Below are positions 12,684 through 64,000 of a stretch of 64,000 bases of DNA, one piece after another. Both the position numbers and the translations under genes were made by a program. The stretch's first letter is position 1. The number at the start of each line of letters is the position of its first letter. Below the pieces are notes generated by a model. The model was not told where the DNA came from. It ran no database searches and saw only the letters and a program-made list of their open reading frames with translations. This stretch comes from Bacteroidales bacterium UBA2939 (GTDB lineage Bacteria > Bacteroidota > Bacteroidia > Bacteroidales > P3): positions 10,503 through 74,502 of the forward strand of contig DECD01000024.1 of the NCBI GenBank assembly GCA_002349055.1, given 5' to 3'.

Positions 12684-12730
12684 GGAGTTGATACGGAGTT
12701 GGTACGGAGTTGAGTCGGAGTTGATACGGA
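12684..12730 (-). repeat. 11-bp tandem array x4.3 (minus-strand reading GTATCAACTCC GACTCAACTCC GTACCAACTCC GTATCAACTCC)
   Basis: Read directly. It lies 209-255 nt upstream of ATG 12475. Confidence 0.9.
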
Positions 12731-39400: not shown

Positions 39401-39805
39401 CGTACCGTCCAGGATGCCGCAGTTGTAGATGCGGGAGGCACCGACAGCGTTGGCGGCGATGGCACCTGCATTGCCTGTGACATTGATAGAAGTGGTACTG
39501 ATAATGACATTCTTGATGACGGCATCCTCGATATAGGTGAAGAGCGGCTTGTCCCAAGTGCCTGTGATGGTTGCCAATTGGCCATCGATGATGCCTTTGA
39601 AGGGGTTGTCGGCAGTGGAGCCGATGCCACCTGACGGTGTGCCTGTTGTGGAGAAATCGCCGGCGAGGACATAATTACCTGTCTGGCTGGTGATATCAGA
39701 GAGATCATGTATCGTCGTCTGGCTCCATGAGGCTGTGGGCAAGAGGGCTGCCAGCAGCAACATCAAGAATCTTGATTTTTGGTTATATTTAACGTTAATT
39801 GCCAT
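36446..39805 (-). CDS. 1119-aa secreted protein: N-terminal GLUG-motif domain, central non-repeat region, C-terminal GGG rungs
   Basis: Complete ORF. Signal peptide ...LLLAALLPTASWSQ. GLUG-like repeats TGGLVGSLGGTARVVNCYSYANITGGTNVGGIVGYNN. It is a paralog of the next gene upstream (shared MVMNCMFYG, LNSNKKL, KWVL, YPILK, GWKIT and EPDY blocks). It ends GNVFAGGNRGTVSGATTVTIQ. Confidence 0.9.
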   Translation of the reverse strand: MAINVKYNQKSRFLMLLLAALLPTASWSQTTIHDLSDITSQTGNYVLAGDFSTTGTPSGGIGSTADNPFKGIIDGQLATITGTWDKPLFTYIEDAVIKNVIISTTSINVTGNAGAIAANAVGASRIYNCGILDGTVKGTAYTGGLVGSLGGTARVVNCYSYANITGGTNVGGIVGYNNYASTASDIRTMVMNCMFYGDITDGTTKSPVYGGKNIANVIDGLNTFNYYAYDQLPSSHLTKDNYNSVLAVEEKYLNRFEFYRLLLNSNKKLAAIYASTATTTVAPGDMAKWVLETADRTNANPKPYPILKAQGTYPSIINPDTDNAPDSATVGRNHGGKLGRTLAVTISGVGSNAPSGASITTSSLTLTRTDKDFDRFNYNYDKVQLPYYNDVGSGNYTGNKAVTGWKITAITPIAGDPYTSANYPTSGITDYPNHNYADRKSSNKDLYSVSHRVFSQGAYFDVPYGVTSITIEPYWGNAIYVADPNYDVVYNKDYGGKQNVTQTGTQAVDNTTQFNGQKIRTSITGIGSGTTVYDNAVVLVGNFHLNGVPSNGTKPFTMMSVDADNDHEPDYSLIYHHIGRLNVSPIRYDFINVIGTSQAQRPNGASLICNMTIYKTKGWFEITNTALLYFPQFEYENTGSSDNNNNSGKVDAPLILLGGVFDQFVSTQRDQVNGKVYYIHVGGNVWIYEFGMGTHGDGSQSTPHVPVSVTGGEYPGFYLTGTYNANAIVRNDNAECYISGGYFHEVAGASQEAINGNVRWQIYNADIDNFYGGGTNDAKPITGHVTVDIYNSHVTTYCGGPKFGNMQQGKKVTTNAEGCVFGKFFGAGFGGLSYTRKKYFDAINYNFNDLQKYYYCPTKPGSHQNERGKYYDGTSTYAPDTKYGQKGPGVATDFDYEFFIWSSGKTGARFYIKYASFSLAQCNDVESNLKGCTIENNFYGGGSLGKVVGNVTSELDGCTVKGNVFGAGYSASVPTLEVRNEGFTINPNFNSAAGIFEPGVFSGTTTFQWKNGTFPSNGSLDPAFAEGKVTTDIDLSKTNLGSVSGTVTLTIKGDSEIGTQGDATTGNVYGGGDESTVYNTTPANATTSVLLQGNTYVRGNVFAGGNRGTVSGATTVTIQ

Positions 39806-39835
39806 TAATTGTCCGTTAATTATTCGTTAATTATT
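39793..39835. repeat. About 11-bp periodic array x4 with core GTTAATT, straddling the start codon of the 1119-aa gene
   Basis: CGTTAATTGCC ATTAATTGTC CGTTAATTATT CGTTAATTATT. ATG 39805-39803 lies at the unit 1/2 junction. Confidence 0.8.
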
Positions 39836-39861
39836 CTTTCTTTGTTCTTTTGCTTGTTTTA

Positions 39862-40152: not shown

Positions 40153-40185
40153 AATTTTCATTTTTCAATTTTCAATTTTCAATTT
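40153..40185 (-). repeat. Heptamer tandem array (TTGAAAA)n, about 4 units, in sense orientation to the 1173-aa gene, starting 7 nt after its stop
   Basis: The minus strand reads TGA CTATTA AATTGAAAATTGAAAATTGAAAAATGAAAATT. Confidence 0.9.
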
Positions 40186-43812: not shown

Positions 43813-43846
43813 TTGAAATTGAAAATTGAAAGTTGAAAATTGAAAA
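43813..43846 (+). repeat. Heptamer tandem array, 5 units (TTGAAA TTGAAAA TTGAAAG TTGAAAA TTGAAAA)
   Basis: Read directly. It lies 13 nt from the -7 box of the 1173-aa gene, on the opposite strand. Confidence 0.9.
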
Positions 43847-43869
43847 TTTCGATGCCCTCCGTACCCTCT

Positions 43870-43902
43870 CTATGAATACGCTATGAATACGCTATGAATA
43901 CT
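43870..43902 (+). repeat. 11-bp tandem array x3 (CTATGAATACG CTATGAATACG CTATGAATACT)
   Basis: Read directly. Confidence 0.9.
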
Positions 43903-43980: not shown

Positions 43981-44023
43981 TATCAACTCCGTGTCAACTC
44001 CGTGTCAACTCCGTGTCAACTCT
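43981..44023 (+). repeat. 11-bp tandem array x4 of the same family (TATCAACTCC GTGTCAACTCC GTGTCAACTCC GTGTCAACTCT)
   Basis: Read directly. It lies 307-349 nt upstream of the tnaA ATG. The CAACTC core is invariant in all eight units of the two arrays. Confidence 0.9.
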
Positions 44024-44101: not shown

Positions 44102-44147
44102 CAGCCGTGATATGACTACATCCAATCCTCATATGACCCTCCATAAA

Positions 44148-44170
44148 CTCTTCTTAAATATCAAGAAGAG
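44148..44170 (+). other. Perfect 8-bp hairpin (CTCTTCTT-AAATATC-AAGAAGAG) inside the tnaA leader region
   Basis: The inverted repeat was read directly from the sequence and is followed by GACGTTTATTTTA. The stem is AT-rich, so stability is modest. Confidence 0.35.
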
Positions 44171-44185
44171 AGACGTTTATTTTAG

Positions 44186-44216
44186 TTGAAAGTTGAAAGT
44201 TGAAAGTTGAAAGTTG
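44186..44216 (+). repeat. Heptamer tandem array (TTGAAAG) x4.4
   Basis: Read directly. The first unit supplies the TGA stop (44187-44189) of the 25-codon sORF. Confidence 0.9.
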
Positions 44217-44329: not shown

Positions 44330-45706
44330 ATGGAACTTCCCTTTGCAGAAGCTTGGAAAATCAAGATGGTTGAACCCATCAAGAAGAGCACCCGCGAGCA
44401 ACGCGAGAAGTGGCTCAACGAGGCTCACCAGAATGTGTTCATGCTGAAGAGCGACTACGTCTACATCGACCTGCTGACCGACAGCGGCACCGGCGCCATG
44501 AGCGACCGCCAGTGGGGCGCGATGATGATGGGCGACGAGAGCTACGGCGGCGCCCGCTCGTTCTTCCACATGAAGGACACCATCACCGAAATCACCGGTT
44601 TTGAGTATGTTATCCCCACCCACCAGGGTCGTGCCGCCGAGAACGTGCTGTTCAGCTACCTGGTGAAGCCCGGCATGATTATCCCCGGCAACGCCCACTT
44701 CGACACCACCAAGGGTCACATCGAGAGCCGCAAGGCTTTCGCCATCGACGTGACCGTCAAGGAGGCTTACGACACCCAGCTCGAGGTGCCTTTCAAAGGC
44801 AATGTCGACCTGGAGAAGCTTGAGAAGATACTGAAAGAGAACAAGGGCAATGTGCCCTTCATGGTGCTCACCGTGACCAATAACACCGTGGGCGGACAGC
44901 CCGTCTCGATGCAGAATATCCGCGAGACCTGCGAGCTCTGCCACAAATACGGTGTGCCCGTGAACATCGACAGCGCCCGCTTCATCGAGAACGCCTACTT
45001 CATCAAGACCCGCGAGAAAGGCTACGAGAACAAGACCCTCGCCGAAATTTGCAAGGAGATGTTCGGCTATGCCGACAGCATGACCATGAGCGCCAAGAAG
45101 GACGGCCTCGTGAACATGGGCGGCTTCATCGCCACCAACAAGCAGGACTGGTACGAGGGTGCCAAGATGTTCTGCATCCCCTTCGAGGGCTTCCTGACCT
45201 ACGGCGGTATGAACGGCCGCGATATGGACGCTCTGGCTGTCGGTCTGAAAGAAAACCTTGAGTTCGAGATGGTTGAGACCCGTATCAAACAGGTCCACTA
45301 CCTCGCCGCCAAATTGGATGAATACGGCATCCCCTACCAGCGTCCCGCCGGTGGCCACGCCATCTTCGTCGACGCCGACAAGGTGCTGACCAACATCCCG
45401 AAGGAGGAGTTCCCCGCCCAGACGCTGACCTGCGAGCTGTACCTCGAGGCCGGTATCCGCGCCTGCGAGATTGGCTATGTGCTGGCCGACCGCGACCCCG
45501 TGACCCGCGAGAACCGCTTCGGTGGCAACGACTTCGTGCGCCTCTGCATCCCGCGCCGCGTGTACACCAACAACCACATGGACGTCATCGCCGCCGCCCT
45601 GAAGAATGTCTACGACCGTCGCGACAGCATCAAACGCGGTTTGGAGATTACCTGGGAAGCCGAGCTGATGAGACACTTTACCTGCCAGTTTAAACGACTG
45701 GGTTAA
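44330..45706 (+). CDS. tnaA: Tryptophanase (beta-eliminating lyase family; tyrosine phenol-lyase not formally excluded)
   Basis: 458 aa. Family blocks IDLLTDSGTGAMS, IPTHQGRAAE, GGQPVSM, DSARFIENAYFIK and the PLP-lysine motif MSAKKDGLVNMGG. The C-terminal RLCIPRRVYTNNHMD block is as in TnaA/TPL. Confidence 0.85.
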   Translation: MELPFAEAWKIKMVEPIKKSTREQREKWLNEAHQNVFMLKSDYVYIDLLTDSGTGAMSDRQWGAMMMGDESYGGARSFFHMKDTITEITGFEYVIPTHQGRAAENVLFSYLVKPGMIIPGNAHFDTTKGHIESRKAFAIDVTVKEAYDTQLEVPFKGNVDLEKLEKILKENKGNVPFMVLTVTNNTVGGQPVSMQNIRETCELCHKYGVPVNIDSARFIENAYFIKTREKGYENKTLAEICKEMFGYADSMTMSAKKDGLVNMGGFIATNKQDWYEGAKMFCIPFEGFLTYGGMNGRDMDALAVGLKENLEFEMVETRIKQVHYLAAKLDEYGIPYQRPAGGHAIFVDADKVLTNIPKEEFPAQTLTCELYLEAGIRACEIGYVLADRDPVTRENRFGGNDFVRLCIPRRVYTNNHMDVIAAALKNVYDRRDSIKRGLEITWEAELMRHFTCQFKRLG

Positions 45707-45707
45707 A

Positions 45708-45735
45708 TTGAAAGTTGAAAATTGAAAATTGAAAA
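45708..45735 (+). repeat. Heptamer tandem array x4, starting 1 nt after the tnaA stop codon
   Basis: GGT TAA A TTGAAAG TTGAAAA TTGAAAA TTGAAAA TTTTT. Confidence 0.9.
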
Positions 45736-45769
45736 TTTTTAATTTAGAACTTTCTAAACTCATTCACAA

Positions 45770-45777
45770 TAAATTTG
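45770..45777 (+). promoter_or_regulatory. -7 box TAAATTTG upstream of the 3057-aa type-B cargo gene
   Basis: CAATAAATTTGCAC, 25 nt upstream of ATG 45802. It overlaps the TTG start used by the ORF track. Confidence 0.5.
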
Positions 45778-45801
45778 CACGATGCGCGTTATCTCAAGAT
45801 A

Positions 45802-48800
45802 ATGCGCATCGTGCGTTCTATAATAATAGGGTTGTTGATGGGCGTCGGCTTGATGGCGGAGGCTCAGGAGGGGTGCACCCCGAAGGTGCTTCCTTGGAGC
45901 GAGTCGTTTGACTCCTACGGGGTTGGGGCCGCGTTGATGCCTCCATGCTGGAGCGGCAGCCACAACTACGACATAGGGGCCGTGCCCCATGTGGACAGTG
46001 CCGTCCATTACGACGGCACGGCGTCGCTGATGCTCTATTCGGGCACCCTGACGGGCAGCCACTACAGCATGGCCATCGGCCCGGAGATTGACGCCGACCT
46101 CACGTCGGGGGTGTACGCCCGCTTCCAGTTCTATGCCCTCAGCACCTCGGTGGCCCTCGAGGTGGGTGTCTGCAACGACACCAACCGCTACACCCGCAAC
46201 TTCGTACCCCTTGACACCGTGCATGTTGACCAAGGACGGCATTGGAAGGAAGTGGTGATAGACCTGAGCCGCTACAGCGGCACGGGGCGGCGGCTGGCCT
46301 TCCGCTTGCAGCGGACATTGCAAGCCGACGTGTGCAACTGCTATGTCGACAACCTGCGCGTGGAGGGCTGCGGCACCACTGTGCCCGAGGTCTACCACAT
46401 CACGCACAACAGCCTGACGGTGGATTGGGAGCGCTTCGGCATCGGAGCCATCCTGCTGGAATACAACGACATGGCGATAGATGATGCCGTGGCACCCCTG
46501 ACACTCACGGGTCTCACGCCATTGACAGAATACACCCTCAGCACGGGATGTGCCGACGGAACCCGTCAGGCGGTGACCGTCAGTACATTGGCGGCTCCAA
46601 GCCTGCAACCCACCTACTACCGCGCGCAACTGACCCTGGAAGGCGACAGCACGCCCGAGGTGCTGCCGCTGCCGCTGGAAAGCATTGACATAGGACAACT
46701 TACGATAGCCTTGCGCTACCGAGGCAACTCCTCGACACGCCTACAGGTGGGTGTGATGGAGTATGCCCTTGAGGCAGAGACCTTCACGGCGTTGGACACC
46801 CTGACTCCCGGCAGCGGGTGGCAGCGGGCGACAGTACCTCTGGCCCCCTATACCGGCACCGGACGCTACCTGGCCCTGATGGCCACAGGCGAACACTCTG
46901 TGGAAATTGCCGACCTCCGCGTGGCGCGCTGCCTGATTGACAGCGTGCGGCTCTACGACCTGACAGACGCCTCGGTCGCCGTGGCGTGGGACACCCTCAC
47001 CGTCGGCGTGGGCGGCGGGGTGACCATTGAATATGGCGTTCCGGGCTTTGCCGCCGGCAGCGGCACCACGGTCACGCCTACCACCAATCCATTCATCCTC
47101 ACAGGATTGCTTCCATCGACAGAATATGACTTGCTGGTGATGCCCAGCTGCGGCGACGAGCCGTCGGCCTTCGACCGCCACCGCATCACCACCTTCTCGC
47201 ACGAGGTGTCGGCCCCCTACTGCATGTCGTTCGAGATGGGCGGCACGCTGCCCCAGGGATGGGTCTGCGGGCAGGGGAGCGTAGCCATCGGCAGCAACGC
47301 CTACGAGGGCAGCCACGGGTTGCACCTGGCGGCGCACTCGCTGGTGGCGATGCCCCGCATAGCCACCGACACAGGTGCCACGGTGGTGGTGGAGTGCTAC
47401 AGCTATGGCACTGGGACTCTGGAGCTAGGCTTCATGGAGAACCCCTTCGGCACCTTCACCCCCTTCGACACCCTGACGGGTGGCAGCGGCTGGCGGCGAC
47501 AGCTGACGACGACCGTCGTCCCGGAAGGGCAGCTCCTGGCGCTGCGCAGCAACACGGCATGGGATATCGACGCCCTGGCGGTGCATGGCGACGCGGTGAC
47601 CTCCCTCTCGGTCGACTCCATCGGAAAGACCTCGGCGCTAGTGAGTTGGCAGACCCTGCTGGGCGACAGCGTGGAGATAGAATATGCCGCCGTCCCCTCG
47701 GCCACCGCCGACTTCACCCCCGGGACGGGCATCGCCCTACAAGGGAAAGACAGCCTGACCCTCGACGGGCTGACCCCCGGAACTTTCTATGCCGTCCACC
47801 TGCGTCCCGTTGGCGACGGCCAAGGCTGCCTCTACCAGAGCTGCCACCTGCAAACCGCCGCGGGCCCCACGGCCGTCCCCTACTGCGAAAACTTCGACAA
47901 CCTCAGCGCCCTCCCCACAGGGTGGCGTCGGAAATCGGACTACGGCGAGTACCCCATTGTCAGCACCGAGCGCAACCACTCGCCGAGCAAGGGCCTGCGC
48001 TTCTCGGCCACCGCCACTGCCAAGACCGTGGCGCTGCTGCCCGACTTCGTCAGCGAAAGCGAGCACCTGACGATGGCTTTCTGGACCAATGTCACACTCA
48101 ACCCCCAAGGAGCGATGCTGTTGGTGGGCCACCTGAGGAACATCACCGACATAAATTCCTTCGTCCCGAGCGACACCATAACATTCTCGCAGACAGAGCG
48201 ATGGGAGCACCATGTGGTAGACCTGGGCACCGCTCATGAGCAGACGGCATTGATGCTGGTGGGTGGCAGCAGCGGCGAGACACGCGTGTTCATCGACGAC
48301 CTTTGTGTGGAGTCTTGCCTCGCCGACGAGATAAGGGTCTCGTCGGTAGACAGCTCGTCGCTGTCGGTGTACTGGAACAGCCGAGGGGTAGCCGCGATGG
48401 ACATCACCCTCAGCGGCAACGGAGAGAACGTGAGGGACACCTTCAGTTTGTCGCCCGCCATCCTCACGGACATCGAACCCAACACCTCTTACACGCTGGT
48501 CTTCCGTGCGTTGTGCGACTGTGGCGACAACGGAGGCGCTCATCTTGTGGGATACGGCTCCGATGGAGAAGTCGCGCAAGACCAAATCACCTCAATCACC
48601 ACACAAACAATGCCGGCATACGTCAACGCTCCCTTCTGCACCAGTTTCGAGCAAGAAAACACCGGCATGTTCCCCTACAACTGGGGGCGGTCGCGAACCT
48701 CTGTGAGGGTCAGCGACAGAAACTACCATGACGGCAGCCACAGCCTTCTTGTGGAGGACAGCTGCTACCTGATGCTGCCGCCCATGCGCAATATACCGAC

Positions 48801-56859: not shown

Positions 56860-58629
56860 ATGGATATCAATACCCTTAACATCGATGAAAGCGCCAAGCT
56901 GAACGTGAAATCTTGGCTCGAAGGAGAATACGATGAGGCCACCAAGCAGGCCATCCGCGACATGATGAGCAACCCCACCGAACTGAACGAGAGCTTCTAC
57001 CGTCACCTGGAGTTCGGCACCGGCGGTCTGCGCGGCATCATGGGCGTGGGCACCAACCGCATGAACAAATACACGGTGGCTATGGCCACCCAAGGACTGG
57101 CCAACTATGTGAGAAAAGTCGAAGAGTCGAAAGGTCAAAAAGTCGAAGAGTTGCGGGCTGCTGTGAGCCACGACAGCCGCAATCACAGCCGCGAGTTTGC
57201 CGAAATCACGGCCAACGTGCTTGCCGCCAACGGTTTCAAGGTCTACCTCTTCGACGGCATGCGTCCCACGCCGGAGCTGAGTTTCGCCGTGCGCCACTTC
57301 AAATGCCATACCGGCGTGATGGTCACCGCCAGCCACAACCCCAAAGAGTATAACGGCTACAAAGCCTATTGGAGCGACGGCTGCCAGCTGACCGCACCGC
57401 ACGACGAGGCCGTTATCGAGGAAGTACTGAAAATCAAGAGCGTGGGAGACGTAAAGATGACGGGAGGCGAGAAGAACATCACCATCATTGGCGAGGATGT
57501 CGACAAGGTGTACCTCGAGCGCGTGGAGAAGAACGCCCTCAACCCCGAGGTCATCAAGAAACACCACGACGTGAAGATTGTCTATACCCCGCTGCATGGC
57601 ACCGGCATCGTGCTCATACCCCGCATGCTGAAGCAGTTGGGATTCACCAACGTCAACATCGTTGAGGCGCAGGCCGTTCCCGACGGCAATTTCCCCACCA
57701 CCCCGAGCCCCAATCCCGAGGAGAAACCCGCCATGAAGATGGCTGTGGACCTGGCCAAAGAGATTGACGCCGACATCGTCTTCGCCTCCGACCCCGACGC
57801 CGACCGCGTGGGTGTGGCCGTGAAGCGTCCCGACGGCGAGTGGATGCTCCTCAACGGCAACCAGACAATGAGCGTACTCTTCTACTATATCGTCAAGCAG
57901 TGGCAGGAGAAGAAGATGCTCACCGGCAACGAGTTCATGGTGAAGACCATCGTCACCAGCGAGCTGCCCGCCGACATCGCCACTCGTGCCGGCATCAAGA
58001 TTTACGACGTGCTCACCGGCTTCAAGTTCATCGGTGCCAAAATACGTGAACTTGAAGGCATTGAGACCTTCATCGCCGGTGGTGAAGAGAGCTATGGCTA
58101 CATGATTGGCGACTTCGTGCGCGACAAGGATGCCGTGGCTGCCTGCTCGATGATTGCCGAGATTGCCGCCTGGGCGCTGGAGCAAGGCAAGACCTTCTTC
58201 GATGTGCTCGTCGACATCTACAAGGAATACGGTTTCTACAAGGAGGGTCTCGTCAGCGTCGTCCGCAAGGGCAAGAGCGGCGCCGAGGAGATTCAGCAGA
58301 TGATGCGCGACTACCGCAGCAACCCGCCTGCCGAAATCGATGGCGAGAAGGTGGTGTGCATCAAAGACTATCAGACCCACGAGAGCCGCACGGAAGTGGA
58401 AAGTGGAAAGTGGAAAGTGGAAAAGCTAACGCTGCCGACTTCCAACGTGCTGCAATTCTTCACCGACAAGGGCAACAAAATCACCGTCCGTCCCAGCGGC
58501 ACCGAACCCAAGATCAAGTTCTACTTCGGTGTCAAGGGCGAGCTCTGCTGCAAGGACTGCTTCGACAAGACCAACGCCGCCCTCGACGGCAAGATTGAGA
58601 GTATCAAGAAAAGTATGAAGCTGGTGTAA
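56860..58629 (+). CDS. alpha-D-phosphohexomutase (phosphoglucomutase/phosphomannomutase family, about 580-aa PgcA-like type)
   Basis: 589 aa. Active-site serine loop GVMVTASHNPKEYNGYK, metal loop ASDPDADR, sugar loop GGEESYGY, phosphate loop RPSGTEPKIKFY. Confidence 0.9.
   Translation: MDINTLNIDESAKLNVKSWLEGEYDEATKQAIRDMMSNPTELNESFYRHLEFGTGGLRGIMGVGTNRMNKYTVAMATQGLANYVRKVEESKGQKVEELRAAVSHDSRNHSREFAEITANVLAANGFKVYLFDGMRPTPELSFAVRHFKCHTGVMVTASHNPKEYNGYKAYWSDGCQLTAPHDEAVIEEVLKIKSVGDVKMTGGEKNITIIGEDVDKVYLERVEKNALNPEVIKKHHDVKIVYTPLHGTGIVLIPRMLKQLGFTNVNIVEAQAVPDGNFPTTPSPNPEEKPAMKMAVDLAKEIDADIVFASDPDADRVGVAVKRPDGEWMLLNGNQTMSVLFYYIVKQWQEKKMLTGNEFMVKTIVTSELPADIATRAGIKIYDVLTGFKFIGAKIRELEGIETFIAGGEESYGYMIGDFVRDKDAVAACSMIAEIAAWALEQGKTFFDVLVDIYKEYGFYKEGLVSVVRKGKSGAEEIQQMMRDYRSNPPAEIDGEKVVCIKDYQTHESRTEVESGKWKVEKLTLPTSNVLQFFTDKGNKITVRPSGTEPKIKFYFGVKGELCCKDCFDKTNAALDGKIESIKKSMKLV
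58396..58423 (+). repeat. Heptamer tandem array (GTGGAAA) x4, read in frame inside the phosphohexomutase gene
   Basis: GTGGAAAGTGGAAAGTGGAAAGTGGAAA encodes VESGKWKVE. Confidence 0.85.
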
Positions 58630-58653
58630 AGTGACTAAGTAACTGAGTGACTG
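58630..58653 (+). repeat. 8-bp tandem array x3 (AGTGACTA AGTAACTG AGTGACTG), directly after the phosphohexomutase stop codon
   Basis: Read directly. It starts at the first nucleotide after TAA 58627-58629. Confidence 0.85.
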
Positions 58654-58665
58654 GGTATACAGGAT

Positions 58666-59280
58666 ATGAATCTGCCATCGAAGATACTGGAGGAGGCAGT
58701 GGAGCAGCTAGCGAGCCTGCCGGGCGTGGGTAAGCGGTCGGCGCTGCGTTATGCGCTGTTCCTCATGAACGAGGAGGAGGCTAAGGTGCGCGATCTCAGC
58801 GAGGCCCTGCTGCGGCTGAAAACCCACCTGCACCACTGCCGTCACTGCCACAACGTCAGCGACACCGAGATATGCCCCATCTGCTCATCCGAAAAGAGGC
58901 AGAGGGGCATTGTCTGTGTGGTGGAGAACGTGCAGGACGTGATGGCCGTGGAGAACACGCAGCAGTACCGCGGCCTGTACCATGTGCTCGGCGGCGTCAT
59001 CTCGCCCATCGACGGCATCGGCGTTCATGATTTGGAGATTGACTCGCTCATCAAGCGCGTGCAGAGCGGCGACCCCGCACCCGTCGAGGAGGTCATCCTG
59101 GCCTTGCCCACCACCATGGAGGGCGACACCACCAACTACTACATCAACAAGCAGCTGCAGCCCTTGGGGGTGAAGGTCACCACGTTGGCACGCGGCGTCG
59201 CCGTGGGCGACAGCCTGGAGTACGCCGACGAGATTACCCTCGGCCGCAGCATCATGCACAGAATACCGTTTGAAAGTTGA
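58666..59280 (+). CDS. recR: Recombination protein RecR
   Basis: 204 aa. HhH LASLPGVGKRSALRYA, C4 zinc finger CRHCHNVSDTEICPIC, Toprim VVENVQDVMAVE. The stop codon TGA 59278-59280 lies inside a heptamer repeat array. Confidence 0.95.
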   Translation: MNLPSKILEEAVEQLASLPGVGKRSALRYALFLMNEEEAKVRDLSEALLRLKTHLHHCRHCHNVSDTEICPICSSEKRQRGIVCVVENVQDVMAVENTQQYRGLYHVLGGVISPIDGIGVHDLEIDSLIKRVQSGDPAPVEEVILALPTTMEGDTTNYYINKQLQPLGVKVTTLARGVAVGDSLEYADEITLGRSIMHRIPFES

Positions 59281-59304
59281 AAATTGAGAATTGAAAATTG
59301 AAAG
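59270..59304 (+). repeat. Heptamer tandem array x5 spanning the recR stop codon and the TTG start of the GH3 lipoprotein gene
   Basis: TTGAAAG TTGAAAA TTGAGAA TTGAAAA TTGAAAG. The recR TGA is in unit 2 and the GH3 TTG is the start of unit 5. Confidence 0.9.
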
Positions 59305-61580: not shown

Positions 61581-63764
61581 ATGTACGTCATCGACGAAGC
61601 ACGCGAAGAGCGCGACATACAGGCCAAATACGACGAACTTATCGAAGCCTGCCGTGTGTTGAAACCCCTCTCACCCGACGAGGAGAGCAACATCTTCCGT
61701 GCTTTCCAGATGGCCAAGAGGGCACACGCCGGCACACGCCGCAAGAGCGGAGAGCCTTACATCTTCCACCCCCTGGCGGTGGCCCTCATCGCCGTCAAGG
61801 AGGTAGGCCTCGGTCCCACGGCCGTCATCGCGGCCCTGCTGCACGACGTGGTTGAGGACACCGAAATCACCCTCGACGAGCTCCGTATGGTCTTCGGCGA
61901 CCGCGTGGCCAAGATTGTTGACGGCGTCACCAAGATAGAGGACGTCATGGTTCTCCAGCAGTCGGAAAGCAAGCAGGCCGAGAACTACCGCAAGATACTG
62001 CTCTCGATGTGCAACGACGCCTACGTCATCTTCCTCAAACTCTGCGACCGACTGCACAACATGCGCACTCTCGGTTCGATGAAGGACACCAAGAAGCTCA
62101 TCATCGCCTCCGAAACCTCCTACCTCTACATTCCCTTGGCCCACCGACTCGGCCTCTACACCATCAAGACCGAGCTCGAAGAGCTGGTGATGAAATATAC
62201 CAACCCCGAGAAATACGAGGAGATTTCGGCCAAGATTGCTGCCACCGCCGACAAAGGGGCCAAGCTCCATGAGTGCCTCGTCGACCCCGTGCGCCAGATG
62301 CTCGACCAAGCCGGCTACCAATACTCCCTCAAGACCCGCGTCAAGTCGGTATTCAGCTGCTGGAAAAAGATTGAGAACAAGCATGTCTCTTTCGAGGAAA
62401 TCTTCGACCTCTACGCCATGCGCATCATCCTCAACGGCGTGCCACGCGACAAGGAAAAGGAGGAGTGCTTCAAGGTCTACGCCCTCATCTCCCAAAAATT
62501 CGACCCCAACCCCACACGCTTCCGCGACTGGATTACCCACCCCAAGAACAACGGCTACGAAAGCCTTCAGACCACCGTTATGACCCCCATCGGCACCTGG
62601 GTCGAAATCCAGATACGCACCGAGCGCATGGACACCATCGCCGAGAAGGGTATGGCCGCCCACTTCCTCTACAAGGAGGCGCACCCCGAGGAAAACATCG
62701 AGCACAACCCCGTCGAGGAATGGCTCCAGCAGATTCGCACCTCGCTCGAACAGAGCGACAAGAGCGCTCTCGACCTCGTCGAAGAGTTCAAGGAGAGCCT
62801 CTATACCAAAGAGATATACATCTTCACCCCGCGTGGACGCACCGTCACCCTACCCTCGCGCAGCACGGTGCTCGACTTCGCCTATGCCATCCATACCGAC
62901 CTCGGCCACCACTGCATCGGCGCCAAGCTCAACGCCCGCGTGGTGAGCCGCAACGAGCGTCTCCACACCGGCGACCAGGTGCAGATTCTCACCACCGCCA
63001 ACACCCTCCCCACCGAGGAATGGCTCACCGAATGCCAGACTCCCCACGCCAAGGAGGCCATCAAGGACTTTCTCCGCGCCCACAAGAAAGAATATGTCGA
63101 GGAGGGCCGTCGCAAATACAAAGAATACCTGAGCAAGAACCACATCAGAAACAACTCCCAGAACTGGGGACAGCTCAAGCGATTCCTCAACAACGCCTCC
63201 GACATCGACGTGCTCTACGACATCGCCGTCGGCAACGTCACTGAGCGCCAGGTGGCCGAATGCTTCGGAAAAGCCCATCGCGAGCCCAACCTCATCTTCA
63301 TCGACCAATACAAGAAACTCGCCACCCCCTTCCTCCTTGACAAGGAGTATGAGAACCTGCCCACCGAGACCGCCACATGCTGCAAACCCGTGCAGGGCGA
63401 CCAGGTGGTGGGCATCGTCCAGGAGGGCAAAATCAAGGTCCACCGCACCAACTGCCGCGAAGCCATGAAGGAGATGGCCAACCACGAGAACCACATCATC
63501 CGCGCCAAGTGGCGTCCGGGCGAACAGCTCTCGCTCCTCACCGGCATCTCGCTCACCGCCATCGACCGCAAAGGCCTCCTCCAGGAAATCACACACCACA
63601 TCTCCGACGAACTCGACCTCAACATGCGCGCCATCACCCTCGAGACCTCCGAGGGTGTCGTCCGCGGCATCATCATGCTCTATGTCAACGACGTGGAGAA
63701 ACTCAACGGCCTCATCGAAAAACTCAAATCCATCGACGAAATTGAAGACGTACACCGGATATAA
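61581..63764 (+). CDS. rel: Bifunctional (p)ppGpp synthetase/hydrolase, RelA/SpoT homolog
   Basis: 727 aa. HD hydrolase motif HPLAVA...LHDVVEDT, synthetase block DLYAMRIIL...YESLQTTV...EIQIRT, TGS (IYIFTPRGRTVTLP...AYAIHTDLG) and a C-terminal ACT-like segment. It starts 3 nt after the recA stop. Confidence 0.9.
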   Translation: MYVIDEAREERDIQAKYDELIEACRVLKPLSPDEESNIFRAFQMAKRAHAGTRRKSGEPYIFHPLAVALIAVKEVGLGPTAVIAALLHDVVEDTEITLDELRMVFGDRVAKIVDGVTKIEDVMVLQQSESKQAENYRKILLSMCNDAYVIFLKLCDRLHNMRTLGSMKDTKKLIIASETSYLYIPLAHRLGLYTIKTELEELVMKYTNPEKYEEISAKIAATADKGAKLHECLVDPVRQMLDQAGYQYSLKTRVKSVFSCWKKIENKHVSFEEIFDLYAMRIILNGVPRDKEKEECFKVYALISQKFDPNPTRFRDWITHPKNNGYESLQTTVMTPIGTWVEIQIRTERMDTIAEKGMAAHFLYKEAHPEENIEHNPVEEWLQQIRTSLEQSDKSALDLVEEFKESLYTKEIYIFTPRGRTVTLPSRSTVLDFAYAIHTDLGHHCIGAKLNARVVSRNERLHTGDQVQILTTANTLPTEEWLTECQTPHAKEAIKDFLRAHKKEYVEEGRRKYKEYLSKNHIRNNSQNWGQLKRFLNNASDIDVLYDIAVGNVTERQVAECFGKAHREPNLIFIDQYKKLATPFLLDKEYENLPTETATCCKPVQGDQVVGIVQEGKIKVHRTNCREAMKEMANHENHIIRAKWRPGEQLSLLTGISLTAIDRKGLLQEITHHISDELDLNMRAITLETSEGVVRGIIMLYVNDVEKLNGLIEKLKSIDEIEDVHRI

Positions 63765-63792
63765 TTGAAAATTGAGAATTGAAAATTGAAAT
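63765..63792 (+). repeat. Heptamer tandem array x4, starting immediately after the rel stop codon
   Basis: ATA TAA TTGAAAA TTGAGAA TTGAAAA TTGAAAT. Confidence 0.9.
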
Positions 63793-63819: not shown

Positions 63820-64000
63820 ATGGACGAAAAGACTCTCGAATCTTTTAAACGTTTAAGCAATATTTTAGACACCCTGCGGAAAGAATGCCCGTGGGACAAA
63901 GTGCAGACAATGAAGTCCCTCCGCTACCTCACCATCGAGGAGGTCCACGAACTGAGCGAAGCCATCATACAAATTGAAAATTTAAAATTGAAAATTGAAA
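63820..64000 (+). CDS. mazG: MazG-family nucleoside triphosphate pyrophosphohydrolase, 5' end only (runs off the right edge)
   Basis: Hand translation gives MDEKTLESFKRLSNILDTLRKECPWDKVQTMKSLRYLTIEEVHELSEAI..., which has the MazG signature CPWD..QT and the EE..E helix. It is not in the ORF track because it is truncated. The last 27 nt are heptamer repeats read in frame. Confidence 0.7.
   Translation, partial: MDEKTLESFKRLSNILDTLRKECPWDKVQTMKSLRYLTIEEVHELSEAIIQIENLKLKIE
63974..64000 (+). repeat. Heptamer tandem array (at least 3.9 units, cut by the window edge), read in frame inside mazG
   Basis: TTGAAAA TTTAAAA TTGAAAA TTGAAA encodes IENLKLKIE. Confidence 0.85.

Follow-up and report, generated by a model that had tools for sequence, protein, structure and literature searches.

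The short tandemly repeated repetitive (STRR) sequences of cyanobacteria are intergenic tandem heptamers, present as several families per genome and usually of longer and variable copy number; repetitive extragenic palindromic (REP) units are palindromes mobilised by RAYT transposases, extragenic and concentrated just after stop codons; and the Rickettsia palindromic elements are palindromic repeats that lie in frame within conserved proteins and are translated. The subject here is a 64,000-nucleotide stretch of the genome of Bacteroidales bacterium UBA2939 (assembly GCA_002349055.1, contig DECD01000024.1, positions 10,503 to 74,502), referred to below as the window, in which arrays of the heptamer TTGAAAA stand at the stop codons of tnaA, rel, recR and a 1173-aa gene. 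Two described sets of repeats come closest to these arrays. Rehm et al. (2015) reported the heptamers GGGAATC in Xanthomonas and GGGGAYT in Nostoc, whose four units were ascribed to G-quadruplex formation; they include 70-75 convergent pairs, reach up to 26 units, are over-represented between co-directional open reading frames (ORFs), when downstream of an ORF lie within 50 bp of the stop codon or overlap it with the purine-rich strand as the coding strand, and are partly conserved in sister species with differences in length (PMC4692102). MacGregor (2015) described the TAACTGA repeats of Beggiatoaceae, cyanobacteria and some Bacteroidetes, the forward copies of which stop all three frames and overlap ORF ends only, while reverse copies are found inside ORFs; their distribution is patchy and lineage-specific with no obvious mobilising gene, and a translational role was proposed (PMC4679880).

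On balance, the (TTGAAAA)4 blocks of the window are probably heptamer simple-sequence arrays specific to the lineage, one family among many, with coding content acting as a filter on the strand. Arrays of this sort occupy hundreds of sites in this rumen Bacteroidales genus, with units of 7-11 nt that are nearly always present in four copies, and they are rapidly made, homogenised and lost. The four arrays at stops lie where a sequence-only reading of the window had placed them, each in the orientation of its own gene. The tnaA stop TAA (45704-45706) is followed by one A, TTGAAAG and three TTGAAAA units, the full run at 45701-45740 being GGT, TAA, A, the four units and TTTTT; the array on the plus strand (45705..45737, AAA followed by the four units) begins within or just past the TAA and is scored by Tandem Repeats Finder as period 7 with 4.7 copies. 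After rel the units TTGAAAA, TTGAGAA, TTGAAAA and TTGAAAT (63765..63792, plus strand) come straight after the TAA at 63762-63764, and on their 3' side are CCCCATAGGGG with a U-rich run and then a new mazG start. The recR array of five units (59270..59304, plus strand) contains both the recR stop itself (TGA, 59278-59280, in unit 2) and the TTG start (59298) of the downstream lipoprotein gene. On the minus strand the array of the 1173-aa gene (40153..40185; AAA, three TTGAAAA units and one ATGAAAA) lies 5-8 nt past the TGA at 40193-40191, with an AGGAATT array after it; the reported adjacency is correct, but the spacing, given as 7 nt, is 5 nt to the repeat-finder boundary or 8 bases to the first full unit (40182). 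The statement that a second in-frame TGA follows within 3-5 codons likewise needs correction at recR, where the next TGA follows 6 codons. Upstream of tnaA a 25-codon short ORF (44112-44189) ends, as had been read, at the TGA of the first unit of a leader array, (TTGAAAG)x4 at 44186..44216 on the plus strand.

The assembly is metagenome-derived (2.65 Mb in 54 contigs, 54% GC, 94.7% complete), and its 2007 genes come from a codon-usage caller in which stops are reliable and starts approximate. It contains 64 TTGAAAA arrays by a strict and 107 by a tolerant definition, and this is the largest family of many: heptamer arrays with 2.8 or more copies total 375, among them families built on GTGGAAA, GGTGAAA, ATGAGAA, TTAGGAA and TTAAGAA, together with many arrays of 8-, 9-, 10- and 11-mers. 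Within the window a three-unit TTGAAAA pattern with up to three mismatches gives 17 matches, compared with 0 in 100 shuffles. Across periods 7-11 it is the copy number, about four, and not the length that is constant. The core is four units in 72 of the 107 TTGAAAA arrays, and runs of 2, 3, 4, 5 and 6 or more TTGARAR units number 37, 20, 43, 1 and 0, respectively. Collapse during assembly is an unlikely source of this four-unit cap in view of the constant copy number, the agreement of metagenome-assembled genomes across studies and the ORFs that remain in frame. A number of arrays nevertheless border on a gap or the end of a contig, so that longer ones may have gone unassembled, and metagenome assembly may under-represent long arrays. 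The TTGAAAA family is found in 17 of 24 genomes of the genus (0-150 matches per genome), and 16 genomes of other families yielded a single TTGAAAA-array match in total. The relatives compared are uncultured rumen Bacteroidales metagenome-assembled genomes, some of them labelled Candidatus Limimorpha, and scans of metagenomes and genomes for same-strain sequence found no contig closer than about 92-93% nucleotide identity at tnaA. The earlier suggestion of a genome-specific expanding repeat biased towards gene ends essentially matches these data, except that the arrays are genus-wide, belong to multiple families and are capped at four units. In the nearest species (G077) there are at least 50 (GTGGAAA)4 arrays, and the set of sites is particular to each species.

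Filtering by coding content arises from the composition of the unit. Because every 7-nt unit contains TGA, three units close all three reading frames, while the reverse complement (TTTTCAA)n is, as had been pointed out, open in every frame and is thus tolerated inside ORFs. The all-three-frame stop geometry recognised in the sequence-only reading is real, but any 7-nt unit with a stop triplet in it would produce it automatically. Nor are TTGAAAA arrays confined to stops: 43 of the 107 are within ORFs in antisense orientation, and the only 4 sense copies within ORFs all carry variants that remove the in-frame stops and are all halves of inverted pairs. Apart from these variant copies the purine-rich strand, with its TGA per unit, is restricted to the last codon and what lies beyond it. 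An all-frame stop device would then be a by-product of unit length and content together with purifying selection, and not the reason for the arrays. The GTGGAAA family, which is without any stop triplet, behaves like TTGAAAA. Altogether 154 heptamer arrays of all families are within ORFs, with hosts verified by Pfam as AroB (3-dehydroquinate synthase), an amidohydrolase, a MatE transporter, a radical-SAM/HemN protein and phosphoglucomutase; a 1177-residue host is presumably the repair-coupling factor Mfd, an assignment made by reading the sequence rather than by a scan. In about 17 antisense copies the encoded residues form the hydrophobic core of a signal peptide (IIFNFQFSIFNS, then AxAQ), and arrays of these families are also present in promoter regions. 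In the phosphoglucomutase gene (pgm) about 36 nt of native sequence has been replaced by 45 nt with an in-frame (GTGGAAA)x4 array of this stop-free sister family (58394..58423, plus strand), which is found in none of the 15 aligned orthologues and is also missing from this site in G077. Both between and within genes the blocks replace or expand 20-40 nt of native sequence.

Turnover at orthologous sites is rapid. The ancestral recR junction, retained in most relatives, is GAAGGATGAAAAC, in which the stop overlaps the next ATG as ATGA, and the array is a net gain of 21 nt; besides this genome the TTGAAAA array occurs there only in the nearest relative (G077/L005, identical), and TTAATAG arrays occupy the junction in L003, L006 and L007. 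The rel and mazG genes overlap or abut without an array in 29 of 29 relatives; L109 has a degenerate array-like spacer only, G077 has no array, and the combination of array, small hairpin and new mazG start is unique to this genome among the relatives compared. The genes after recR and rel begin in relatives inside or directly at the end of the upstream gene. Here the insertions that came with the arrays have made new starts and N-termini, at 59298 (TTG, after recR) and 63820 (ATG, after rel). At the 3' end of tnaA a plain hairpin terminator stands in the majority of about 156 loci, and in several lineages differing 7-, 8- and 9-mer arrays stand right after the stop; G077 has 9-mer CTAG arrays instead, and a homologous array, with ATGAAAA units, was found only in metagenome contig L227. 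Of seven window arrays compared with G077, three are shared, and two of the three known ancestral junctions already resembled the heptamer unit.

The array in the tnaA leader retains four units across species with a unit that differs between them (TTGAAAG, GTAAGAG, TTAAGAG, TTAAGAA or GTTTAAA). Since the number of units and the position are kept while the unit is changed in all copies together, the array appears to undergo concerted evolution. A similar pattern is seen within mazG, where the sense array at 63974..64000 (plus strand, in frame) is the left arm of a palindromic pair (C31:74476-74552) that runs past the end of the window, and where a TTTAAAA variant unit eliminates the single in-frame TGA. 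The left arm, including this stop-removing unit, is common to this genome and G077, and the right arms have been homogenised differently; among species the paired units vary (TTGAAAA/TTCTCAA, GAAAGGC/GCCTTTC, ../CTCCGAC) and the arms remain complementary. These sequence comparisons point to local replacement with homogenisation rather than to classical transposition. Palindromic heptamer pairs (four units, a spacer of about 21-28 nt, four inverted units) occupy a single surface loop of MazG in this genome, in L085-L110 and in G077.

The short ORF that ends in the tnaA leader array is itself a conserved leader peptide of tnaA in many rumen and hindgut Bacteroidales (L111-L268), with 36 distinct versions. 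It has an invariant ...FLNIKKRDV(Y/C)... core just before the stop and is without a Trp codon; E. coli TnaC, by contrast, contains one. The peptide could serve tryptophanase in arrest or attenuation.

Although found in many settings, the arrays are markedly concentrated at stop codons. Sixty of the 107 TTGAAAA arrays have their midpoint in non-coding DNA, and 23 of these start between -20 and +10 nt from a same-strand stop, compared with 3.0 +/- 1.7 (maximum 10) in 2000 random placements. Sense copies at stops outnumber antisense ones by 23:3 among all 107 arrays and by 23:2 among the 60 non-coding ones (binomial p ~1e-4), and so both the genome-wide enrichment and the orientation bias that the sequence-only reading had put forward for checking by permutation were found. 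Ten of the 23 stop-abutting arrays have the stop within them, as a TGA in unit 1, 2 or 3, and in the others it is a TAA or TGA, never TAG, that merges into the leading AAA. Of the TTGAAAA arrays 23-26 abut stops and about 19 lie near a same-strand start, 14 of the latter in tight junctions where the array also abuts a stop. When all families are taken together 98 heptamer arrays abut stops, with a purine-rich sense strand in 74 and a pyrimidine-rich one in 11; 76 close all three frames, and about 40% (39/98) are in tight operon junctions with the next start no more than 40 nt away.

The excess exactly at the stop may come from an A-rich stop context that serves as a seed or as microhomology, and the short spacer from stop to hairpin or from stop to start may be under the least constraint; a mutational bias linked to transcription could also play a part. 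The context after stops is indeed A-rich (TAA or TGA followed by AAA are the commonest, and over +1..+30 A is 0.34 vs 0.26 for T), and because two of the three ancestral junctions also resembled the unit a seed or microhomology effect probably contributes to the concentration at stops. Three single-factor explanations were discarded. The seed hypothesis alone is insufficient, with 5.6% of single TTGARAR heptamers at stops vs 38% of arrays in non-coding DNA; a filter acting at tight junctions alone does not account for an orientation bias that remains in far and convergent contexts; and a period not divisible by 3 cannot be the driver when 9-mers are found at stops with the same frequency as 8-mers, and 11-mers hardly ever.

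Several observations weigh against an explanation by filtered simple-sequence arrays. The coding filter explains the missing sense copies in genes, not the full pattern at stops. Arrays are about 7-fold denser at stops than single TTGARAR heptamers (23/60 vs 35/624, non-coding), 9 of the 16 arrays starting past a stop begin no more than 3 nt from it, and such positions are in excess of a uniform spread across the stop-to-hairpin spacer. Among all heptamers at stops the purine-on-sense bias is 32:3 in far co-directional and 9:0 in convergent contexts, where with no nearby downstream gene both orientations should be harmless and the coding filter is irrelevant. Arrays of 11-mers avoid stops (3/156), so that the various periods do not use "free space" in the same way. 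A search for a generating enzyme found no RAYT and no reverse transcriptase in the genome, and the fixed position and unit number at the tnaA leader could mean selection on the array as such.

It has accordingly to be considered that the arrays are a selected cis-acting element, a four-unit spacer (about 28 nt) of unstructured, purine-rich sequence that directly follows the stop and influences the transcript or its translation. The roles that can be proposed are to separate overlapping cistrons, to provide an A-rich landing zone for the Bacteroidota ribosome that does without a Shine-Dalgarno sequence, to shield a downstream hairpin from the terminating ribosome and to act as an all-frame back-stop. 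Such an element would account for a stop enrichment beyond both random placement and seed density, for the orientation bias where the coding filter is irrelevant, for independent arrays of different units straight after the tnaA stop in several lineages and for the position and four units kept at the stop of the leader ORF despite unit turnover; the recR and rel arrays, moreover, supplant ancestral overlaps, that of recR giving a new TTG start, and the same placement rules hold in unrelated phyla (PMC4692102, PMC4679880). The explanation is nevertheless rather unlikely. Gain and loss at orthologous stops are rapid (the rel array is in 0 of 29 relatives, and of the 8 closest 1 has the recR array), no more than about 7% of genes end in an array of period 7-10, members of these families are dispersed over ORFs and promoter regions as well, and there is no suppressor tRNA. 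A back-stop for readthrough or frameshifted ribosomes, one of the functions originally suggested, in particular shows no sign of selection, as the tRNA set of the genome is standard with no suppressor or Sec tRNA, arrays are missing at the corresponding stops in most sister species, and families that lack a stop triplet (GTGGAAA) show the same behaviour. It is also unlikely that the four-unit arrays are a selected "punctuation mark" after stops that acts on the terminating ribosome or on freshly ribosome-free transcript, with the possible effects of uncoupling cistrons, priming re-initiation and protecting or positioning downstream hairpins. If this were true, a punctuation element would have arisen convergently in Bacteroidales, Xanthomonas, cyanobacteria and Beggiatoa, and A-rich arrays incapable of forming quadruplexes would show that the four-unit rule has a cause other than the G-quadruplex.

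The sequence-only reading had also raised a role at transcript 3' ends on the premise that no hairpin terminators are visible at these sites. This premise fails, since a strong conserved hairpin of 17-18 bp, GCACGATGCGCGTTATC-TCAA-GATAATGCGCATCGTGC, follows tnaA at 45777..45815 on the plus strand, and rel is followed by the small hairpin already mentioned. The tnaA hairpin gives -48.7 kcal/mol over a 131-nt stretch (z = -8.6) and has compensatory CG/AT changes in G077, L138 and L192. It lies before a 3012-aa gene and is followed by GTTYTATAATAAT with no clean U run, and may be a terminator or a regulator. The tnaA array alone is unstructured (-1.3 kcal/mol, z = +0.29), without a GC-rich stem-loop and U run. 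That the arrays are a hairpin-less transcription terminator or an RNA 3'-end or processing signal is thus very improbable, even though they are located directly after stops and AU-rich single-stranded sequence could suit endonucleases: an array has no structure of its own, tnaA and rel have downstream hairpins, termination at the operon junctions that hold 39 of the 98 arrays would silence the next gene, and identical arrays lie antisense in ORFs and in promoter regions. A strict hairpin with T-run was found within 160 nt in 2 of 24 array-bearing genes with a long downstream gap vs 124 of 761 others, which is in the direction expected of a terminator but is not significant and comes from a scan that is too insensitive; a separate terminator scan found no more terminator-like sites than in shuffles.

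A proportion of the arrays form inverted pairs. Of the 107, 23 have an inverted partner 0-90 nt downstream and 0-1 have one upstream, and convergent pairs number 11 vs 0-1 divergent ones. Several pairs have common spacers (GGCTGACGCAGA), with a near-identical 52-nt spacer at two loci; pairs sit in frame within mazG and one other gene, and the arms of one pair stand on either side of part of a type IX secretion tail domain. The tnaA array is itself followed by a degenerate inverted partial copy, TTTTTAATTTAGAACTTTC (45738..45760, plus strand), which by folding can pair with the 3' half of the array as an AU-rich stem, and an analogous ATGAAAA-C-TTTTCAT palindrome follows tnaA at metagenome locus L227. 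All of this could be read as the remains of a hairpin-forming mobile element of the REPIN, MITE (miniature inverted-repeat transposable element) or Rickettsia palindromic kind, with (TTGAAAA)4 - spacer - (TTTTCAA)4 as the active unit and single arrays as decayed halves, and there is indeed a likeness to REP, BIME and REPIN sequences in the concentration after stops and in the occurrence of singlets along with hairpin-capable convergent doublets, and to the Rickettsia palindromic elements in translated in-frame palindromes such as the mazG pair. Such an origin is, however, quite improbable. About three quarters of the arrays are solitary with no complement nearby, as are most of those at stops, where only 6 of 23 reach a duplex energy of -12 kcal/mol or below. 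The unit is a tandem repeat and not the imperfect palindrome of REP, and the Rickettsia elements are unrelated in sequence and size, whereas the arrays here are mostly single and about 30 nt long. The RAYT/Y1 transposase (PF01797) had no match in the genome in a search with positive controls, the assembly, which is 94.7% complete, yielded no reverse transcriptase, target-site duplications were not observed, and the difference in units between species at one site fits local homogenisation better than repeated insertion.

Two recurrent modules contain or adjoin the arrays. One, at gene junctions, consists of a stop, (TTGAAAA)4, a spacer of about 50 nt that includes the next start, and (TTTTCAA)4 encoding the signal-peptide core ...CASIIFNFQFSIFNSAxAQ (G000, C50:45703-45816, C10:73168-73274, C32:174632-174747, C8:90090-90192 and C50:38158-38274); by pairing with each other its two arrays could form a 28-bp stem around the start codon. 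The other is a module of about 27 nt, GGCTGACGCAAAAAGTGTCTTTTTCA, found as three tandem copies beside heptamer arrays (G000, C32 ~120000-120058 and C26:6200-6240), the core of which, GGCTGACGCA, is the spacer of the mazG and C8:64221 palindromic pairs.

The window holds further arrays. An array of five units (43813..43848, plus strand) lies where the 1173-aa gene and tnaA diverge, away from any stop codon, and an 8-mer array, AGTGACTR x3 (58630..58653, plus strand), has its first base directly after the pgm TAA, where G077 has a 4-nt spacer only. The 11-mer arrays (at 43870-43901, 43983-44022, 12684-12730 and 39793-39836) belong to families with an AACTCC-NNNNN consensus and about 3.7 copies, of which there are 159 genome-wide. 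They are confined to the interior of intergenic regions, at a median of 181 nt upstream of starts, show no strand bias and avoid the 70 nt before starts, a niche distinct from that of the heptamers.

When set beside the described systems, the filtered simple-sequence arrays of this genome share with those of Xanthomonas and Nostoc head-to-tail heptamers at many loci (107 TTGAAAA and 375 heptamer arrays here), a modal number of four units (72/107), a stop-proximal position with the purine-rich strand on the coding strand (23 vs 3 expected; 74 vs 11) and convergent inverted pairs (the 23 arrays with a downstream partner). Over-representation between ORFs that run in one direction and partial conservation in sister species, with differing lengths, are further common traits. 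They differ in that the one G of each TTGAAAA unit rules out a G-quadruplex, in that many unit families coexist and more than five units are almost absent, and in that arrays are common inside ORFs, including those of housekeeping enzymes. With TAACTGA they have in common a closed sense and an open reverse strand (43 antisense copies in ORFs and 4 sense copies that have lost TGA) and a patchy occurrence limited to certain lineages, with no obvious gene for mobilisation; however, TAACTGA arrays end just upstream of starts, whereas here the arrays are tied to stops, four copies dominate, the unit is different and there are dozens of related and unrelated unit families. The likeness to STRR lies in intergenic tandem heptamers of several families, and the constancy of four units, from locus to locus and from species to species, speaks against phase-variable contingency repeats. 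As the rules are the same but there is no quadruplex, many families and far more invasion of ORFs, the arrays are a variant of the known kind: an array kind already described in other bacteria, of which the many-family, quadruplex-incapable and ORF-invading form is new.

The arrays carry a warning, as an all-frame stop geometry is automatic for a 7-nt unit with a stop triplet and the split between sense and antisense copies reflects selection on coding content. They are also a test case, in that A-rich arrays with the traits of those in Xanthomonas and Nostoc but with no quadruplex point to a more general mechanism or function. Finally, repeat blocks of this type rewrite genes: they undo overlaps, create stops and starts, encode signal-peptide cores and add loops to enzymes (AroB, phosphoglucomutase and, by its sequence, the presumed Mfd), which is of relevance for the annotation of rumen metagenome-assembled genomes and for the tolerance of proteins to insertions.

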